Source: Rickettsiales bacterium (GTDB lineage: Bacteria > Pseudomonadota > Alphaproteobacteria > Rickettsiales > UBA3002). From it: a stretch of 64,000 nt of DNA. The stretch lies in contig JBIIAV010000002.1 in assembly GCA_044239745.1 (NCBI GenBank), forward strand, positions 12,583-76,582, written 5' to 3'. Position numbers and translations under genes: made by a program. The notes beneath the pieces were generated by a model that saw only the letters and a list, made by a program, of their open reading frames with translations, was not told the origin of the DNA and did not search any database. Below, one piece after another: positions 1,306 through 45,766 of the stretch (position 1 is the first letter of the stretch; each line of letters starts with the position of its first letter).

Positions 1306-1566
1306 CTATTTACTATTGAGGACGCGCAGCGCCGTGTAGAACACATCCTTCACGTGTTCCTCGGGCTTGACGCGGCCGGTGCGCATTTCGTCGGCGATCT
1401 TTTTCCAGACATCGTCGGGCATCTCCTTGGCAATGATGGTATAGCCCGCCGCCTCCAGCGCCTTGAGCACCGCCTGCGCCTGTTTGGTATAATCCTCGAA
1501 GAAATAGCTCGAATCCGCCTTGCTGATAGCATTCTGAATCACGGTCTGTAGCTTGGGCTTGCTCAT
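1306..1566 (-). CDS. hypothetical 86-aa soluble protein, translationally coupled to putA
   Basis: Its ATG (1564-1566) overlaps the putA TGA (1563-1565) as ATGA. Intact ORF with no family recognised. Confidence 0.5.
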   Translation of the reverse strand: MSKPKLQTVIQNAISKADSSYFFEDYTKQAQAVLKALEAAGYTIIAKEMPDDVWKKIADEMRTGRVKPEEHVKDVFYTALRVLNSK

Positions 1567-4500
1567 GCCAGCAGCTCGACATTGCCGCCGATGGCAGCGG
1601 TGTTGATGGTGGTGGTGCGCTCGCTGATGAAGCGCAGCAAATAATGCGGGCCGCCCGCCTTGGGGCCGGTGCCCGAAAGCCCCTCGCCGCCGAACGGCTG
1701 CACGCCCACCACCGCGCCCGTCATGCTGCGGTTGACGTAGCGGTTGCCCACCGGCGCTTCGTCCAAGATCGCTTCCATCTTGGCGCGCAGGCGCGTATGC
1801 AGGCCGAAGGTCAGGCCATAGCCGCTGCCGCGGATCTCGCCTAAAATCTTGGGCAGCTCTTTCGATTTATACGTGAAGAAATGCAACACGGGGCCGAAGA
1901 TCTCCTCGCTAAGTTGGCTGGGCGAATCAAGGCCGAACACGTGCGGCGGCACGAAGGTATCGTCCGATGGGGGCGTTGCCCCCAAACCCCCTCCGCTTCG
2001 CGGCTCGCCTTCGGCTACGCACGGCTGAATCTCGCACGCATGGTGCCAGCGCGCGACGCGCTTCATCGCCCCGATATGGGCAAGCAGGCCTTGCTGCGCC
2101 CCACGGTCGATCACCGGACCGATATCGGTCGCAAGGTCGCGCGTGTCGGCCACCCGCAATTCGTCCATCGCGCCCACCAGCAAATCGCGCAGATGTTGCG
2201 CCACTTCTTCCTGCACAAATAGCATCCGCAAGCTGGAGCAGCGTTGCCCCGCCGAGCCGAACGCGCTCGTGATAATATCGTCGCAGGCCTGTTCCAGCAG
2301 CGCCGAGGAATCGACGATCATGGCGTTCATACCGCCCGTCTCGGCGATCAGCGGCACGATCGGGCCGTCCTTTTCGGCCAGTGCGCGCGCAATATATTTC
2401 GCAACGGTCGTCGAGCCGGTGAAGCAGACGCCCGCCACCTGCGGTGCCGTCACCAACGCGGCGCCCACCGTCTCGCCCGCGCCGCAGGCCAGCAGCAACG
2501 CGTCGGTCGGGATGCCCGCCTCGTGCAGCACGGCCACCGCTGCGGCAGCGATGCGCGGCGTTTGTTCGGCCGGTTTGGCGACCACACTATTGCCCGCAAC
2601 CAAGGCCGCCGCCACTTGGCCGATGAAGATCGCCAGCGGGAAATTCCACGGGCTGATGCACACGAACACCCCGCGGCCATGCAGCGTCAGCACGTTGCTT
2701 TCGCCGGTCGGCCCGTTCAGCGTTTGCGGCGCAAATATGCGTTCGGCCTCGTTGGCATAATAGCGGCAGAAATCGACCGCCTCGCGCAGCTCGGCCACGG
2801 CATCGGCATAGGTCTTTTTGGCTTCCGTCACGCATAGGGCGATCATGGCGTCGCGGCGTGCCTCAAGCAGGTCGGCGGCGCGGCGCAAAGCGGCCGCACG
2901 CGTCGCAACGGGGGTCGTGTCCCAGCCATGGAAGGCTGCCTGCGCCCGCGTCACCATCACCGCCGCATCGCTGGCGTGCATGTCCTTGGGTGCGGGTGTG
3001 GGGGTCGAAAAATGCTGCGCAACATGCTGCATGAAATCAAGGCGCACACTGCGGTAACCGAAATCGATGCCGAGCGGATTCTTGCGCGTCGCACCGTAGA
3101 GATCGACCGGCAGCGGAATATCACTCGCCGGTTGTGCGTCGGCGGCGCGCACATGCGCAATCGGGCTTACGGTCAGGTCATCGACCGCCGTGCGTTTATC
3201 CATCAACAGATGCACGAACGAGCTATTGGCGCCATTTTCGAGCAGCCGGCGGATGAGGTAGGCGAGCAGATCCTTGTGCGCCCCGACCGGCGCATAGATG
3301 CGCACGCGGTAGCCGGTAGCATCGTGATGCGCCGCTTGCGTAGGCTCCGCCGCCCCCTTAATCGACACAAGCTGATCATGCAGGCTTTCGCCCATGCCGT
3401 GCAAACGTTGGAACTCATACTGCGCGGGCACACGTTGCTGCGCCTCGGCCATGGTGATGATGGTGGCCACCGTCAGCGCGTTATGGGTCGCAAATTGCGG
3501 GTAAATCGTATCGCCCGCCGCCAATAATTGCTGCGCACAGGCGAGGTAGGAAAGGTCGGTATATTCCTTGCGCGTGAACACGGGATAGCCCGCCAATCCC
3601 TGCATCTGCGCATGCTTGATCTCGCTGTCCCAATAGGCGCCCTTGACCAGCCGCACCGGAATGCGTCGGCCCAGTTTCTTTGCCAATGCTGCAAGCGTTT
3701 CGGCCACGAACACGGCACGCTTCTGGTAGGCCTGCAACACGAATCCGATGCCCTCGAAATCGGCAAATTCGGGGTCCTCGAGCAGGTTCTTATAGATCTC
3801 GAGCTCGATCTCCAGCCGGTTGGCCTCCTCGGCATCCAGCGACACCGCGATGCGGTGCGCCTTGCCTTCGCGTAGAATATCCTTCAGGCGCGGTAGCAAT
3901 TCGTTCATCACGCGCGCTTCCTGTGTTTGGGCATAGCGCGGGTGCAGTGCCGAGAGCTTCACCGAAATGCCGGGGCGGGCGAACAGTTCCGTCTCCTTCG
4001 TCGCCGCCGCGATTTGGCGAATGCCGGTGAGGTACGATTGCACATAGCCTTGCGCCTGCGTGTCCGTGCGCGCGCCCTCGCCCAAAATGTCATAGGAAAT
4101 GGTGTAGCCCTTGGCCTCGTCGTCCTGCGCTTGTTTGATCGCGTCCGCCACCGTTTCGCCCATCACGAATTGGGTGCCGAGGAATTTCATGCCGGCGCGC
4201 AGTGCTTGCCGGATCACCGGCTCGCCGGAGCGTTTGATGAGCCCGCCGAACCATGCGGCCATCGAATCGCCGGCGTCCAAATCCAGCACCGAACCGGTCA
4301 GCATCAGCGCCCAGGTGCTGGCGTTCACCAGCGTCGATTCGCTCTGCCCCAGATGCTGCTTCCAGTTGCCCGAGGCGAACGTATCCTCGATCAGCGCATC
4401 GGCGGTGCTGCTATCGGGAATGCGCAGCAGCGCCTCGGCCAGGCACATCATCGCGATGCCTTCCTTGGTCGATAGGCCATAGGACTGCAAGAACGCCTCG

Positions 4501-4688
4501 ACCGTGTTGGCCGAGCCGACCGCGCGTTGCTTGGTGATGAGGGCGTGGGCGCGCGCGCGGATGGTGGCGTCCATCGCCGTAAGCGGGCGCACCCGTTCCA
4601 GCAGCGCCTGCACGCGGGTGCGTTCATCCGCCAGTGCGTGCGCGCTGATATTGTCGAGCCAATGTTCCATGGCCGCCGACCTTGCCAT
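1563..4688 (-). CDS. putA: bifunctional proline dehydrogenase / L-glutamate-gamma-semialdehyde dehydrogenase PutA
   Basis: About 1040 aa. PRODH barrel region plus aldehyde dehydrogenase domain (FTGST, EAGGKNA-like ETGGMNA, catalytic SAGQRCS). Start moved to ATG 4688 (MARSAAMEHW...) because the longer track ORF would overlap the tRNA at 4781-4857. Confidence 0.93.
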   Translation of the reverse strand: MARSAAMEHWLDNISAHALADERTRVQALLERVRPLTAMDATIRARAHALITKQRAVGSANTVEAFLQSYGLSTKEGIAMMCLAEALLRIPDSSTADALIEDTFASGNWKQHLGQSESTLVNASTWALMLTGSVLDLDAGDSMAAWFGGLIKRSGEPVIRQALRAGMKFLGTQFVMGETVADAIKQAQDDEAKGYTISYDILGEGARTDTQAQGYVQSYLTGIRQIAAATKETELFARPGISVKLSALHPRYAQTQEARVMNELLPRLKDILREGKAHRIAVSLDAEEANRLEIELEIYKNLLEDPEFADFEGIGFVLQAYQKRAVFVAETLAALAKKLGRRIPVRLVKGAYWDSEIKHAQMQGLAGYPVFTRKEYTDLSYLACAQQLLAAGDTIYPQFATHNALTVATIITMAEAQQRVPAQYEFQRLHGMGESLHDQLVSIKGAAEPTQAAHHDATGYRVRIYAPVGAHKDLLAYLIRRLLENGANSSFVHLLMDKRTAVDDLTVSPIAHVRAADAQPASDIPLPVDLYGATRKNPLGIDFGYRSVRLDFMQHVAQHFSTPTPAPKDMHASDAAVMVTRAQAAFHGWDTTPVATRAAALRRAADLLEARRDAMIALCVTEAKKTYADAVAELREAVDFCRYYANEAERIFAPQTLNGPTGESNVLTLHGRGVFVCISPWNFPLAIFIGQVAAALVAGNSVVAKPAEQTPRIAAAAVAVLHEAGIPTDALLLACGAGETVGAALVTAPQVAGVCFTGSTTVAKYIARALAEKDGPIVPLIAETGGMNAMIVDSSALLEQACDDIITSAFGSAGQRCSSLRMLFVQEEVAQHLRDLLVGAMDELRVADTRDLATDIGPVIDRGAQQGLLAHIGAMKRVARWHHACEIQPCVAEGEPRSGGGLGATPPSDDTFVPPHVFGLDSPSQLSEEIFGPVLHFFTYKSKELPKILGEIRGSGYGLTFGLHTRLRAKMEAILDEAPVGNRYVNRSMTGAVVGVQPFGGEGLSGTGPKAGGPHYLLRFISERTTTINTAAIGGNVELLA
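1966..2022 (-). repeat. palindromic-element copy inserted in-frame in putA
   Basis: Gene-sense sequence is GTGCGTAGCCGAAGGCGAGCCGCGAAGCGGAGGGGGTTTGGGGGCAACGCCCCCATC. It encodes CVAEGEPRSGGGLGATPPS inside the ALDH domain. Confidence 0.7.
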
Positions 4689-4780
4689 GCCCACGGCCAA
4701 TGTCAACACGCGGCAGCATTCGCCCCCGCCGATTCGCGGCTTCCCCCGCCCGTGCGATTGCGCTATGACCGGCCCAACGT

Positions 4781-4857
<77 letters not shown>

Positions 4858-40608: not shown

Positions 40609-40753
40609 GACTTACTTTCTTCCTTCACCGACGAAGTCGGACACTAGAAGAGTGGGTCGGATGCTCGGCGCTGGCGCTCCGAAAAACCGCAGCGTAGCAT
40701 CGCTACGTGAGGATTTGACGGAGTGACGGCAACAACGCAGACGATCCGCTATG

Positions 40754-41532: not shown

Positions 41533-42981
41533 CTAGTGGTGGGCAGTGGATGCGGTGACCGCAGCCGTGATGGATGCAGGTAGCGGGCGCGGTTTCTCGA
41601 TGCGGCCGACGATGGGCAGCACCACCAAGAAATGCGCGAAGTAGTAGCCGGTGCACAGCAACGAAAGCAGCGGGAAGATGCCTTCCGGCGGCTTGCTGCC
41701 GCAATAGCCGAGGATTACAGCGTTGATGGCGAACAGCCAGAAGAACCAACGATAGATCGGGCGGTAATTGCTCGAGCGCACGGGGCTGGTATCCAGCCAC
41801 GGCAACGCGAACAGGATGAGAATGGCGCCGAACATGGCGAGCACCCCACCGAGCTTCGACTCAATCACTGCGCCTGCAAAGCCTGTCACCGTCAGCACGG
41901 TCGCAAGCGTGAGCATCGACGCGATACACATCACGCCGCATGGTTTCTTGGGCAGGAACGAAGCCAGCGCCCCCAGAATGCCGTTGGTGCCAAGCAGTGC
42001 GCGCACCAGCGTCGCGTAGCGCAGCACCGCGGTCAGCCCGAACAGGCCAAGGCCTAAAATCCATAGCGGGATATCAAACGTGATGGCGCGCAGGATCGCG
42101 TAGAACGGCAGGAAATACCATTCCGGCACGATGTGCTTGGGCGTCACCAGCGGGTCAGCGGGGATGTAGTTATCGGGGTGGCCGAGATAGTTCGGCGCGA
42201 AGAACACGAATGCCGCGAACACCAAGAAGAACACCCCGAACCCGAAGAAATCTTTCGAGGTATAATACGGGTGGAACGGAATTTGGTCCTGCGGGCCCTT
42301 CACATCGATACCCGTCGGGTTGTTGCTGCCATGTTGGTGCAGCGCCATCAAATGCATCATCACCACGCCGACCAGCACGAACGGCATCAGAAAATGCAGC
42401 GCAAAGAAGCGGTTCAGCGTCGGGTTATCGACCGAGAAGCCGCCCCACAACCACGCCACGATATCCTCGCCCACCAGCGGGAAGGCCGAGAACAGGTTGG
42501 TGATCACCGTCGCGCCCCAGAAGCTCATCTGGCCCCATGGCAGCACATAGCCCATGAACGCCGTCGCCATCATCAGCAGCAAAATAATGATGCCAAGGAA
42601 CCATAGCAGTTCGCGTGGCCGCTTGTAGGAGCCGAAATACAGCCCGCGCGCGATATGGATGTAGGTGACGATGAAGAACATGCTGGCGCCCACCGCATGC
42701 ATGTAGCGAATGAGCCAACCGTAATTGACGTTACGCATAATCTGCTCGACCGAATCGAACGCGAGCGCGGTGGAGGCGGCATAGTGCATGGCAAGGAACA
42801 GGCCGGTCAGGATCTGGCTGACGAGCATGACGCCCGCAAGCGAGCCGAAGTTCCAGAAATAGTTCAGGTTGCGCGGCGTCGGGTACTGAACCAGCGAGTT
42901 GTTCAGCATCGAGAAAATCGGCAGACGATATTCGATCCAACCGACGATACCGGGTTTTTCTTCCTGTGGTGCGTGGGCCAT
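41533..42981 (-). CDS. petB: cytochrome b of the bc1 complex (with an unusually long hydrophobic insertion after the PEWYFL motif)
   Basis: 482 aa. His ligands in the [13 protein letters not shown] and [20 protein letters not shown] contexts. [13 protein letters not shown] motif. Confidence 0.94.
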
Positions 42982-43427
42982 TAGCTTACCCCTTTTCCTT
43001 TGTTATCGATCATTCCTACGCTTCTGGCGGTATGCAAAATTTGATTTTTCAATTCGCCGATTTCGGTCGATTCCGTGTTGACGATGGTGAGCATCTGCTT
43101 CACGACGCTTTTAAGTCCCTCGCGGGTCGCTTTCGGCATATCCCTATCCTTCTCTGAAGCCGTCAGCACATGCATGATCGCGGCACAGAGGTAGTGCGGG
43201 TCTTTTGCATCGGCGTCACCGACTGCGTTGAACGCATCTAAACCCCAACTGCTCATGCCATAGCCTTCGCGCAAGCCGCCGGTTCTCGCCCCGCCCGACA
43301 GTACATGGCTGGCCACGGCGCGCATTTGTATCACTACGTCCGAACGTTTGAATAGCGCTTCAAGCCGCAGCTTGAGAGTCACATCGACCGGCGCAGAATA
43401 CAGATTGGGTGAGAAGGCAATGGTCAC
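42981..43427 (-). CDS. hypothetical 148-aa soluble protein inserted between petA and petB
   Basis: Intact ORF filling the whole petA-petB gap. GTG start 3 nt after the petA stop. Its TAA overlaps the petB ATG (TAATG). Visibly AT-richer than its neighbours. No TM segments or known motifs recognised, and only a weak ribosome-binding site. Confidence 0.5.
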
Positions 43428-43430
43428 GAT

Positions 43431-43970
43431 CTATCCAATTTTCACTTTGGTGTCCGTCATAAATTCATAGGGCGGTATCATCAAATTCGTAGGCGCGGGG
43501 CCTTTGCGGATGCGCCCCGAGGAATCGTAGTGCGAGCCATGGCACGGGCAGAACCAGCCGTCGTAATCGCCGCCGCCGGAGCCGATCGGCACGCAGCCCA
43601 AATGGGTGCAAACGCCCACCATCACCAGCCATTTTTCCTTGCCCACCTTCACGCGCGCCGTGTCCGTCTCGGGGTCGCGCAGCTCGGCAATATTCACTGC
43701 ATTCGCCTCATCGATATTTTTGGCCGTGCGGTGGCGAATGAACACCGGCTTACCGCGCCACATCACCTTAATTTCCTGCCCCTCAGCGATCGCGCCGATA
43801 TCCACTTCGGTGCTCGAAAGCGCCAACACGTCCGCGCTGGGGTTCATGCTGTCGATGAACGGCCAGATCAGCGCCGCAGCACCAAGGCCGCCCATGGCCT
43901 GTGCGCTGAGCACCAAAAAGTCGCGGCGGGGGGGGTTGTCGGGGTTGGTGTTCGCGTGGTCGGCGCTCAT
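43431..43970 (-). CDS. petA: ubiquinol-cytochrome c reductase Rieske iron-sulfur subunit
   Basis: Tat signal RRDFL. 2Fe-2S boxes CTHLGC and CPCHGS. GAGGA ribosome-binding site. Confidence 0.95.
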
Positions 43971-44138: not shown

Positions 44139-44672
44139 ATGCTCAATCTCGTCCTCTATCAACCGGATATTCCCCAAAATCTAGGGGCTTGCCTGCGGCT
44201 TTGCGCATGCATGGGCGCCACGGTGCACATCATCGAGCCCTGCGGCTTTGTGCTGGATGATACCAAAATTCGTCGCGCCGGCATGGATTATATGCATAAA
44301 GTCAACTATGTCCGCCATCTCGATTGGCAGGCCTTTCTAAACTATCGCCATGCAGCGGATGAAGCCCGCGTAGCCTCCCATGGCGAGCCGCGTGCGGAGG
44401 GGGGAAGCAAAGCGAGGGGGGCGATGCCCCCTTCACGATTACTCCTACTCGAGACGGATGGCGCCACCCCCTACACCGAGATTTCCTACCAACCCACCGA
44501 TTACATCGTCTTTGGCCGCGAATCGGCCGGCACGCCGGCAGCGCTCTATGCGCAGATGGACACCACCCTCACCATCCCGATGGTGGCGGGCATGCGCTCC
44601 TTGAATGTCGCGATGAGCGCTGGCATGGTGGTCGCCGAAGCCTGCCGCCAAATGAATTGGAAATTTGCATGA
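44139..44672 (+). CDS. trmL: tRNA (cytidine/uridine-2'-O)-methyltransferase TrmL (SpoU/TrmH family)
   Basis: MLNLVLYQPDIPQNLGACLRLCA..., FGRESAGTP, IPM..GMRSLNVAMSAGMV. Roughly 24 aa longer than canonical because of the repeat insertion. Confidence 0.9.
   Translation: MLNLVLYQPDIPQNLGACLRLCACMGATVHIIEPCGFVLDDTKIRRAGMDYMHKVNYVRHLDWQAFLNYRHAADEARVASHGEPRAEGGSKARGAMPPSRLLLLETDGATPYTEISYQPTDYIVFGRESAGTPAALYAQMDTTLTIPMVAGMRSLNVAMSAGMVVAEACRQMNWKFA
44367..44434 (+). repeat. palindromic-element copy inserted in-frame in trmL
   Basis: CGCGTAGCCTCCCATGGCGAGCCGCGTGCGGAGGGGGGAAGCAAAGCGAGGGGGGCGATGCCCCCTTC. It encodes ARVASHGEPRAEGGSKARGAMPPS. Confidence 0.75.
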
Positions 44673-45766
44673 GCCTTGACGAGAAAAAAGCCACCGCCGC
44701 CGCATGGTTTCGCACCCTGCGCGACGATATCTGCGCCAAATTCGAGACGATCGAGGCGGAATACGCCGCCGCACATCCCGTAGCGGATTCGAGCATGCGT
44801 AGCGCGGATGGCCCGCGCGAGCCGGAGGCCGTTAGGCCGAACGATGGGGGGCCGGTAGGCGGGGGCGACTTCGCCCCCCGTGGCGAAGCCACCGCACGCT
44901 TCATACGTACTCCGTGGCAGCGCGACGGTGGCGGCAGCGGCGAGATGTCGATCATGAAAGGCCGCGTGTTCGAGAAGGTCGGCGTCAATATCTCGGTCGT
45001 TCAAGGCACATTTTCAGAGCAGTTCCGCCACGAGATCCCTGGTGCTAGCGAGGACCCGAATTTCTGGGCGGCGGGCATTTCGCTCGTCGCGCACATGGCA
45101 TCGCCCCTCGTGCCGGCGGCACATATGAACACCCGCATGATCGCGGTGGGCGAGCGCCCTACCCGCCTGTGGTTCGGCGGCGGCGGCGACCTCAACCCCA
45201 TGGTCGAGAATTCGCAGGACACCGCCGATTTCCACGCCGCCTTCAAAGCCGCCTGCGATGGGCTGAATACCGCAGCACATGCGAGCAGCGAGCCATCCAG
45301 CAACTACTACGACGCCTTCAAGCAATGGTGCGACGAATATTTCTTCATCCCCCACCGCAACGAGGCGCGCGGCGTCGGCGGCATTTTCTACGATTATCTC
45401 GGCCTCAACCGCTTCGGGGCGGATACCGCGCCCGTCACCTCCGGCCGCTTCGGCAAGGGCGGGGTCACCGCCGCGGCGACCGCTCACGGCATGCAGCTTG
45501 CCGCCAACGCCGCCATCGACTGGGGGCAAGGGCTTGCCTTCACGCAACAGGTCGGGCGGGCGTTCGCTTCCATCTACCCAGCCCTCATCCGCCGCCATAT
45601 GTTCGAGCCATGGACCGAGGCCGAGCGTCACCACCAACTCGTTAAGCGCGGGCGCTATGCCGAGTATAATTTGCTGTACGATCGTGGCACCCGCTTCGGC
45701 CTGATGACGGGTGGCAACACCGAAGCGATTTTAATGTCGCTGCCGCCCGTGGCTATTTGGGAATAG
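44669..45766 (+). CDS. hemF: oxygen-dependent coproporphyrinogen III oxidase
   Basis: From ATG 44669 (ATGA overlap with the trmL stop). Motifs WQRDGGG, H.NTR, WFGGGGDL, HRNEARGVGGIF, RGRY.E.NL.YDRGT.FGL and PP...W. Roughly 65 aa longer than the E. coli enzyme. Confidence 0.92.
   Translation: MSLDEKKATAAAWFRTLRDDICAKFETIEAEYAAAHPVADSSMRSADGPREPEAVRPNDGGPVGGGDFAPRGEATARFIRTPWQRDGGGSGEMSIMKGRVFEKVGVNISVVQGTFSEQFRHEIPGASEDPNFWAAGISLVAHMASPLVPAAHMNTRMIAVGERPTRLWFGGGGDLNPMVENSQDTADFHAAFKAACDGLNTAAHASSEPSSNYYDAFKQWCDEYFFIPHRNEARGVGGIFYDYLGLNRFGADTAPVTSGRFGKGGVTAAATAHGMQLAANAAIDWGQGLAFTQQVGRAFASIYPALIRRHMFEPWTEAERHHQLVKRGRYAEYNLLYDRGTRFGLMTGGNTEAILMSLPPVAIWE
44795..44890 (+). repeat. palindromic-element copy inserted in-frame near the hemF N-terminus
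   Basis: ATGCGTAGCGCGGATGGCCCGCGCGAGCCGGAGGCC...GGGGGCGACTTCGCCCCC...GGCGAAGCC. It encodes MRSADGPREPEAVRPNDGGPVGGGDFAPRGEA. Confidence 0.7.

Follow-up and report, generated by a model that had tools for sequence, protein, structure and literature searches.

An additional gene, orfX, between petA and petB in the cytochrome bc1 operon of a Rickettsiales bacterium and its relatives

We analyzed a 64,000-nucleotide stretch of DNA of a Rickettsiales bacterium (GenBank assembly GCA_044239745.1, contig JBIIAV010000002.1, positions 12,583 to 76,582; hereafter the window), which carries an operon encoding the cytochrome bc1 complex. Between the genes for the Rieske iron-sulfur subunit (petA) and cytochrome b (petB), this operon contains an additional open reading frame (ORF) of 148 codons, for which the working name orfX is used. 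The analysis established that orfX is a genuine protein-coding gene, which is vertically inherited and tied to the bc1 operon, and the searches described below suggest that it represents a previously undescribed family with no known fold relative. An earlier note on this DNA had described the ORF as filling the whole petA-petB gap. This was confirmed, and the ORF was located on the minus strand, which the note had left unstated. The organization of the locus is as follows.

43970..43431, minus strand: petA, Rieske iron-sulfur subunit of 179 amino acids (aa), with Pfam matches PF10399 (1e-15) and PF00355 (1e-10) and a twin-arginine signal (RRDFL); the TAG stop codon occupies 43433..43431

43428..43430, minus strand: spacer ATC of 3 nucleotides (nt), from the petA stop codon to the GTG of orfX

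43427..42981, minus strand: orfX, 447 nt, GTG start, 148 aa plus stop codon, predicted soluble all-alpha protein of 15.9 kDa

42981..41533, minus strand: petB, cytochrome b of 482 aa, with Pfam matches PF00033, PF13631 and PF00032

41521..40754, minus strand: petC, cytochrome c1 of 255 aa, with Pfam match PF02167 (8.5e-99), ATG start with AGGAG

40688..40707, minus strand: terminator-like hairpin with a T-run, directly 3' of petC (consensus scan only)

Read on the minus strand, the petA/orfX junction is ...AAA ATT GGA TAG ATC GTG ACC..., with orfX starting 3 nt past the petA stop codon, and the orfX/petB junction is ...GGG GTA AGC TAATG GCC..., in which the TAA of orfX overlaps the ATG of petB, exactly as the earlier note had read them. 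The Pfam assignments of the three flanking ORFs identify a bc1 operon encoding PetA (with its Tat signal), PetB and PetC together. The canonical alphaproteobacterial operon (petABC or fbcFBC) likewise encodes a Rieske protein with a Tat signal, cytochrome b and cytochrome c1, in this order; it differs from that of the window, which ends at the terminator-like hairpin, in that here petA and petB are not adjacent and a fourth cistron of 447 nt intervenes. A consensus scan of the coding (minus) strand revealed no promoter-like or terminator-like site within orfX, and the hairpin after petC is the likely end of the operon. The genes petA, orfX, petB and petC would thus be carried on one transcript, with orfX as its fourth cistron.

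Homologs of orfX were sought by an exhaustive HMMER search of 1.84 billion cluster representatives. Eight full-length homologs (137-145 aa, E values of 1e-41 to 2e-5) were found with phmmer, and a ninth cluster was found by a profile search. About 17 sequences, which form 10 clusters at 90% identity, represent the family in a collection of 15 billion proteins, and all named copies are annotated as "hypothetical protein". The homologs align end to end, with a between-lineage identity of 23-59% (85% in the close pair L082/L083). Seven residues are invariant (L18, L22, Y56, F66, P77, L126 and I130) and six nearly so (F26, K34, H41, L63, L80 and D94), and the motifs FFNRPDV, H41, GYG and DGDPHNL are kept across lineages at only about 30% identity. 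The orfX of the window belongs to this family: its product is a predicted soluble helical protein within the size range of the family (137-148 aa), carries the shared motifs and is encoded between the Rieske and cytochrome b genes. No match to orfX was found in Pfam or NCBIfam, and none of the 10 family members matched a Pfam entry at E<=1; a word-index homology search with the single sequence returned the query itself only. Two giant repeat proteins (P0008 and P0010) were rejected as homologs, because their scores were sums of weak repeat matches. No copy of orfX at any locus other than petA-petB was found among the cluster representatives, nor any paralog in the window, and a literature search retrieved no description of an ORF between petA and petB.

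All nine other clusters, as well as a strain variant, are located between the Rieske and cytochrome b genes (contigs L081-L090 and L095-L102), so that the association of orfX with the bc1 operon holds in 10/10 lineages. In all these loci orfX starts 2-5 nt past the petA stop codon and ends with an overlap of the petB ATG or within 3 nt of it. Wherever the contig is long enough, the upstream neighbourhood is that of the window (genes for an AmpG-like transporter of the major facilitator superfamily, HemF and a SpoU methylase), and so are the genes downstream of petA-orfX-petB-petC (UppP, MurJ and RibF).

The survey of petA-petB spacing in related genomes that the earlier note had proposed revealed lineages both with and without orfX, and its statement that an ORF in this gap is unusual proved correct. 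Among the matches listed, 77 other alphaproteobacterial species-representative loci have a petA-petB gap of at most about 110 nt (as judged from the alignments), and tblastn detected no orfX homolog in any of them; the nearest species representatives among these matches are metagenome-assembled genomes (MAGs) labelled Rickettsiales, Rhodospirillaceae or Alphaproteobacteria. Four loci (L091, L093, L094 and L001) encode the same unusually long cytochrome b without orfX. The surrounding genes of L091 and L093/94 match the neighbourhood of the window, and in L091, L093 and L001 petB starts 4-8 nt past the petA stop codon. A metagenome search with the lineage-specific insertion of this cytochrome b yielded four loci, and the three spanning the petA-petB junction all lack orfX. 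In a neighbor-joining tree of six concatenated proteins, the orfX-bearing lineages and L091 form one clade (89% bootstrap), with L093 outside. Monophyly of the orfX-bearing lineages received a bootstrap value of 33%, and the placement of L091 as sister to L084 one of 60%. Since the tree leaves L091 either sister to the orfX-bearing lineages or nested among them, the history of orfX comprises one gain and zero or one loss.

We also examined the nucleotide composition and the selection acting on orfX. As the earlier note had observed, the gene is AT-richer than its flanks: its G+C content is 0.537, compared with 0.611 for petA and 0.590 for petB, and its G+C content at third codon positions (GC3) is 0.62, compared with 0.79 and 0.81, respectively. 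The GC3 of orfX is below that of petA and petB in 10/10 lineages; as this holds throughout the family, the AT-richness reflects a lasting feature of orfX itself and not a recent import. The frame remained open in 16 of 20,000 shuffles of the 447 nt, while the other five frames contain 4-12 stop codons, and the conservation of orfX in other genomes rules out a chance open frame.

The gene is under purifying selection. Pairwise ratios of nonsynonymous to synonymous substitution rates (dN/dS) are 0.19 for L082/L083, 0.29 for the window and L095, and 0.20-0.36 for deeper pairs (0.03-0.24 for neighbouring genes). As measured by dN, orfX has diverged 3-10 times as much as petA and petB. With respect to L082, L083 and L084, the window shares 77-86% identity in PetA, 79-82% in PetB and 79-84% in MurJ, and only 30-35% in the orfX product. 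The divergence of orfX correlates with that of the core genes (Mantel r = 0.75, p ~2e-4), and its identity saturates near 30-36% once the core proteins drop below about 90%. No pseudogenisation or truncation was observed in the 10 lineages. The test of conservation in relatives, also suggested in the earlier note, found orfX intact at the same spot in all lineages that carry it.

These data bear on the proposal, made in the earlier note, of a horizontally acquired selfish gene riding an essential operon. That orfX is a mobile or selfish gene of this kind (toxin, phage or defence), or else a non-coding chance frame, is highly improbable. Such an origin could be read from the AT-richness and from the first word-index search, which returned no homolog; the chance frame is excluded by the shuffling result and by conservation, and a mobile origin is opposed by several observations. 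No features of phage, defence, toxin-antitoxin or insertion sequence genes were found for orfX, none of the 10 members has a match in PHROGs, PADLOC or Pfam (the clear match to a mobile-element gene that the note had named as a refutation did not appear, with 0 hits in PHROGs and 0 in PADLOC), the scan of viral contigs detected no relative, and no repeats bound the gene. The gene was found only at the petA-petB locus, where it is inherited with the host genes, as indicated by the Mantel correlation. It is under purifying selection, and its low GC3 is common to all lineages.

A near-identical strain, L101 (JGI metagenome), shares essentially 100% identity with the window over 10.2 kb, with few scattered mismatches at one end. 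A patch of about 660 bp (window positions ~42574-43244, minus strand; L101 positions 4150-4850) has an identity of 86-94%. It spans orfX codon 62 to petB codon 136 and resembles an import by homologous recombination. Within it, orfX has 14 synonymous and 9 nonsynonymous changes, the changes falling mostly in the sequence of helix 6, and petB has 31 and 3.

In order to assess how orfX may be translated, start codons and the energies of duplexes with the anti-Shine-Dalgarno (anti-SD) sequence were compared across 11 orfX-bearing loci. The start codon of orfX is GTG in 5/11, TTG in 3/11 and ATG in 3/11 loci, and the mean anti-SD energy is -3.6 kcal/mol (-3.1 in the window, where no good Shine-Dalgarno sequence is present). 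The petA, petB and petC genes always start with ATG, preceded by a Shine-Dalgarno sequence of the GAGG or AGGAG type (mean energies of -6.1, -7.4 and -7.1 kcal/mol, respectively). The site preceding petB lies inside orfX:

42989..42998, minus strand: Shine-Dalgarno sequence of petB, AAAAGGGG, purine-rich, in the last orfX codons (dG -7.9)

Equivalent sites occur within the orfX tail in all 11 loci (AAAGGGG, GAGGAG, AAGGAG). The C-terminal K-G(x)(x) tail of the protein, conserved though disordered, coincides with this site, and its conservation is therefore probably imposed at the RNA level. The orfX start, for its part, occupies the re-initiation position that petB uses in relatives without orfX, and since a 3-nt spacer without a good Shine-Dalgarno sequence precedes it, the petA-orfX geometry fits termination-reinitiation. 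The coupled expression proposed in the earlier note is in agreement with both junctions, with the nuance that no other gene of the operon has start signals as weak as those of orfX, and that petB has a strong Shine-Dalgarno sequence of its own. We propose that orfX would be translated by weak re-initiation after petA, and that petB would be started independently from the strong site inside the orfX tail. Because of this weak re-initiation, the cell probably produces less of the orfX product than of PetA, PetB or PetC.

The same signals could point to a role of the act of translation, more than of its product. In such a case orfX would be a translated spacer that uncouples petB from petA and tunes the ratio or the timing of Rieske and cytochrome b synthesis. 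In orfX-less relatives petB starts 4-11 nt past the petA stop codon. In orfX-bearing loci this re-initiation position is taken by orfX, and petB has acquired its own, stronger Shine-Dalgarno sequence, located in the orfX tail. We regard this explanation as improbable, since, if orfX were no more than a spacer, purifying selection would not maintain a foldable protein of 140 aa with conserved motifs.

The predicted proteins of the family have a mass of 15-16 kDa and an isoelectric point between 5.4 and 9.1. In agreement with the earlier note, the orfX product of the window has no transmembrane segment (maximum Kyte-Doolittle mean over 19 residues of 0.76; 0.5-1.5 across all family members), no motif recognised by Pfam or NCBIfam and, by inspection, no signal peptide, its N-terminus being devoid of a hydrophobic core or twin-arginine motif. 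An AlphaFold2 model was built from the 10-sequence alignment, since the single-sequence model was poor (predicted local distance difference test score, pLDDT, of 61). The alignment-based model (pLDDT 86, predicted template modelling score 0.84) is all-alpha, with six helices (residues 13-27, 29-42, 58-66, 77-91, 99-118 and 125-136) and a disordered tail (pLDDT below 50 for residues 143-148). Foldseek found nothing significant in the PDB (best E value 0.89, template modelling score <= 0.36, among the top 50 of 302 matches) or in BFVD. A profile search of PDB sequences at E<=10 detected no bc1 chain, and only designed repeat proteins; one of these, 7rdr, was rejected as a relative because its score summed weak repeat matches. 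The profile and structure searches recommended in the earlier note have thus produced a small family and no known fold.

The properties described so far could also be those of a young, possibly de novo-born gene whose function, if any, is unrelated to the bc1 complex. It would have originated at the petA-petB junction of one ancestor, or arrived there, and would persist because the petB Shine-Dalgarno sequence now lies inside it and because this spot guarantees expression. The extremely narrow distribution (about 17 of 15 billion proteins, in 10 clusters), the absence of a homolog elsewhere among 1.84 billion cluster representatives and of a known fold, the dN of 3-10 times that of its neighbours, the higher share of nonsynonymous changes in the L101 patch (9:14 in orfX versus 3:31 in petB), and the fact that sister lineages do not have the gene, which L091 may have lost secondarily, are all in line with such a hitch-hiker. 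However, dN/dS is consistently below 0.4, none of the 10 lineages has a pseudogene or a truncated copy, the length, helix pattern and motifs are kept at about 30% identity, and the AlphaFold model is confident. The conserved motifs, the dN/dS values, the model and the intact copies argue for a selected protein function, and genes retained in operons usually share the function of the operon. We therefore consider an unrelated function unlikely.

The cytochrome b encoded next to orfX is itself unusual:

41866..42084, minus strand: insertion of about 70 aa in petB (residues ~300-372), between the ef-loop and helix F

The insertion contains two extra hydrophobic segments around a cytoplasmic FLPKK loop, which implies a 10-helix cytochrome b. 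It is common to all sufficiently long orfX loci, and also to L091, L093/94 and L001, and is therefore not diagnostic of orfX. A Cys motif (FLPKKxCxxxC) was likewise rejected as linked to orfX, because L095 and L099 are devoid of it and the orfX-less L091 has part of it. L001 groups apart from the other insertion-bearing lineages in the concatenated tree, so that repeated gain or loss of the insertion is possible. A different long insert is present at the same site of the cytochrome b of a Micavibrio MAG (L039). As for the other flanking gene, the petA of the orfX-bearing relative L098 (3339-3935) was called as 198 aa with a Cys/His-rich N-terminal extension (MLIVRGFMHHHDGCCGQAHDD...), which is probably a mis-called start.

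The insertion is relevant to the possibility that orfX encodes a supernumerary subunit, stoichiometric and peripheral, which would bind the complex from the cytoplasmic side and modulate its stability or activity. Such a subunit might dock, for instance, on the N-side loops of cytochrome b or on the lineage-specific insertion. It would play a part like that of mitochondrial QCR7 or of the soluble domain of subunit IV from Rhodobacter sphaeroides, the parallel being limited to role. The strict position between two core subunit genes in 10/10 lineages and the small, helical and soluble character of the protein are compatible with this, the FLPKK-loop insertion present in all orfX-bearing cytochromes b could offer a docking surface, and additional subunits of this kind are known to have been acquired separately in individual lineages and to diverge rapidly. 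On the other hand, the start codon and Shine-Dalgarno sequence of orfX are much weaker than those of the core genes and its GC3 is lower, it has no membrane anchor, the insertion also occurs in the orfX-less L091, L093 and L001, residues of the core subunits do not co-vary with the presence of orfX, its surface charge is not conserved, and no bc1 subunit from the PDB resembles it in fold (top 50 of 302 Foldseek matches). A fixed subunit thus seems rather unlikely to us, though less so than a function unrelated to the complex.

Comparison with known systems bears on the same question. The only well-studied supernumerary subunit of a proteobacterial bc1 complex is subunit IV (FbcQ) of R. sphaeroides, which is unique to its lineage, raises activity threefold and contains a transmembrane helix, and whose gene is not part of the fbcFBC operon (PMC10041115). 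It resembles the orfX product in its restriction to one lineage, its mass (about 14-16 kDa), its cytoplasmic soluble part and its lack of homology to other supernumerary subunits, and it is proof that the bc1 complexes of bacteria can take on additional components. In contrast, the orfX product has no transmembrane segment and is encoded inside the operon. A C-terminal transmembrane helix like the one with which subunit IV packs against the Rieske and c1 helices is absent from all orfX members, as judged from the hydropathy maxima, and no sequence or fold similarity to subunit IV was found in the PDB profile search or the Foldseek comparison. The fbcCXFB operon of Thermus thermophilus reportedly carries an extra subunit, FbcX, which is said to be membrane-anchored and to co-purify with the complex. 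As in the window, a lineage-specific gene would be placed between core genes of a Rieske/cytochrome b operon, but in a different phylum and with a different gene order; a literature search on FbcX retrieved nothing relevant. None of the known extra bc1 components appears to resemble orfX or to be encoded between petA and petB.

In bacteria, a gene for a dedicated cytoplasmic maturation chaperone is often found among the structural genes of a redox-enzyme operon. In narGHJI, for example, narJ is placed between the gene of the Fe-S subunit (narH) and that of a cytochrome b (narI). Like TorD and DmsD, NarJ is a small, entirely helical protein of the cytoplasm whose gene belongs to the operon of its client, and these proteins act before cofactor-loaded subunits are targeted or exported. 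QCR7, in turn, is bound to cytochrome b from the matrix side. By the time Tat or Bcs1 translocates the Rieske protein, it has folded and received its cluster (in the cytoplasm, in the case of Tat), and in the mitochondrial matrix the small helical protein Mzm1 protects the folded Rieske protein before this step (PMC12219900). Mzm1/LYRM7 and QCR7/UQCRB are small helical proteins of the N (matrix) side, and their likeness to the orfX product concerns the proposed role only. In searches with the 10 members in Pfam (E<=1 for QCR7/UQCRB) and among the top 50 of 302 PDB Foldseek matches, no profile or fold match to TorD/DmsD/NarJ or QCR7/UQCRB was found; an LYRM match was likewise absent from the Pfam and Foldseek results, and the orfX alignment has no conserved L-Y-R/K tripeptide.

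We tentatively favor, with rather less than even confidence, the view that the orfX product is a cytoplasmic, sub-stoichiometric and clade-specific factor of bc1 biogenesis or maintenance. A bc1-linked accessory role is the best reading of the strict positional conservation, the functional link following from guilt by association in 10/10 lineages. The accessory or regulatory subunit proposed in the earlier note therefore stands as far as an accessory role is concerned, a role suggested by genomic context alone. A sub-stoichiometric, dispensable accessory is preferred over a fixed structural subunit because of the weak start signals, the low GC3 and the fast evolution of orfX, and because the gene is absent from sister lineages with a nearly identical core and no Rieske residues co-vary with it. 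The protein would act on the cytoplasmic (N) side, for example by holding the folded Rieske precursor before its Tat export, or alternatively by aiding the assembly of cytochrome b, and would be functionally analogous, through a chaperone-type action, to the operon-encoded chaperones of the NarJ type or to mitochondrial Mzm1.

Several points weigh against such a factor. The translation of orfX, the binding of its product to bc1 and its phenotype are predictions, and no similarity of the family to a known chaperone, subunit or fold was detected. Since L091, L093/94 and L001 have the same long cytochrome b and the same neighbourhood without orfX, the gene is apparently not needed by a nearly identical bc1 complex. 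In the alignment no Rieske residue separates orfX-bearing from orfX-less lineages, and only three positions, all within the cytochrome b insertion, do so. The broad range of isoelectric points (5.4-9.1) and the identity of about 30%, versus 80-90% for the core proteins, would also fit a weakly constrained young gene, and weak start signals are no proof of low abundance.

It is also conceivable, although somewhat doubtful, that orfX was born recently, possibly de novo and with a novel fold, and was recruited as a fourth component of the bc1 complex (a subunit or an assembly factor). If so, the operon would represent an early stage in the acquisition of supernumerary subunits by respiratory complexes, caught living, and lineages that naturally have or lack orfX on the same core enzyme are available for comparison. 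The bacterial bc1 complex is usually treated as a minimal three-subunit enzyme. How additional subunits or dedicated factors of assembly come to be recruited, and why, is still an open question (PMC10041115). The literature search retrieved no cytoplasmic chaperone that specifically serves a bacterial Rieske protein exported by Tat, and the orfX product would be a candidate for this role. Even if unrelated to bc1, it is a fast-evolving orphan gene fixed inside an essential operon. The locus offers an experimental handle, since an in-frame deletion of orfX can spare the petB Shine-Dalgarno sequence. The clade is narrow and has seldom been sampled, and the gene is of relevance to specialists in bioenergetics and in orphan-gene evolution.

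Two further observations concern other genes of the window. Divergently oriented from the operon, a SpoU-type methylase ORF (44139-44672, plus strand) and the ORF of HemF, a coproporphyrinogen oxidase (44657-45766, plus strand), overlap by 16 nt. Both seemingly contain extra low-complexity stretches rich in Ala, Gly, Pro and Arg compared with their homologs in related loci, and the HemF ORF begins with TTG, its true start being uncertain. The sole Rfam match in the 64-kb window is a tRNA gene (4781-4854, plus strand), which adjoins the 5' end of a minus-strand ORF of 1093 aa (1563..4844), and the coordinates of the two overlap.

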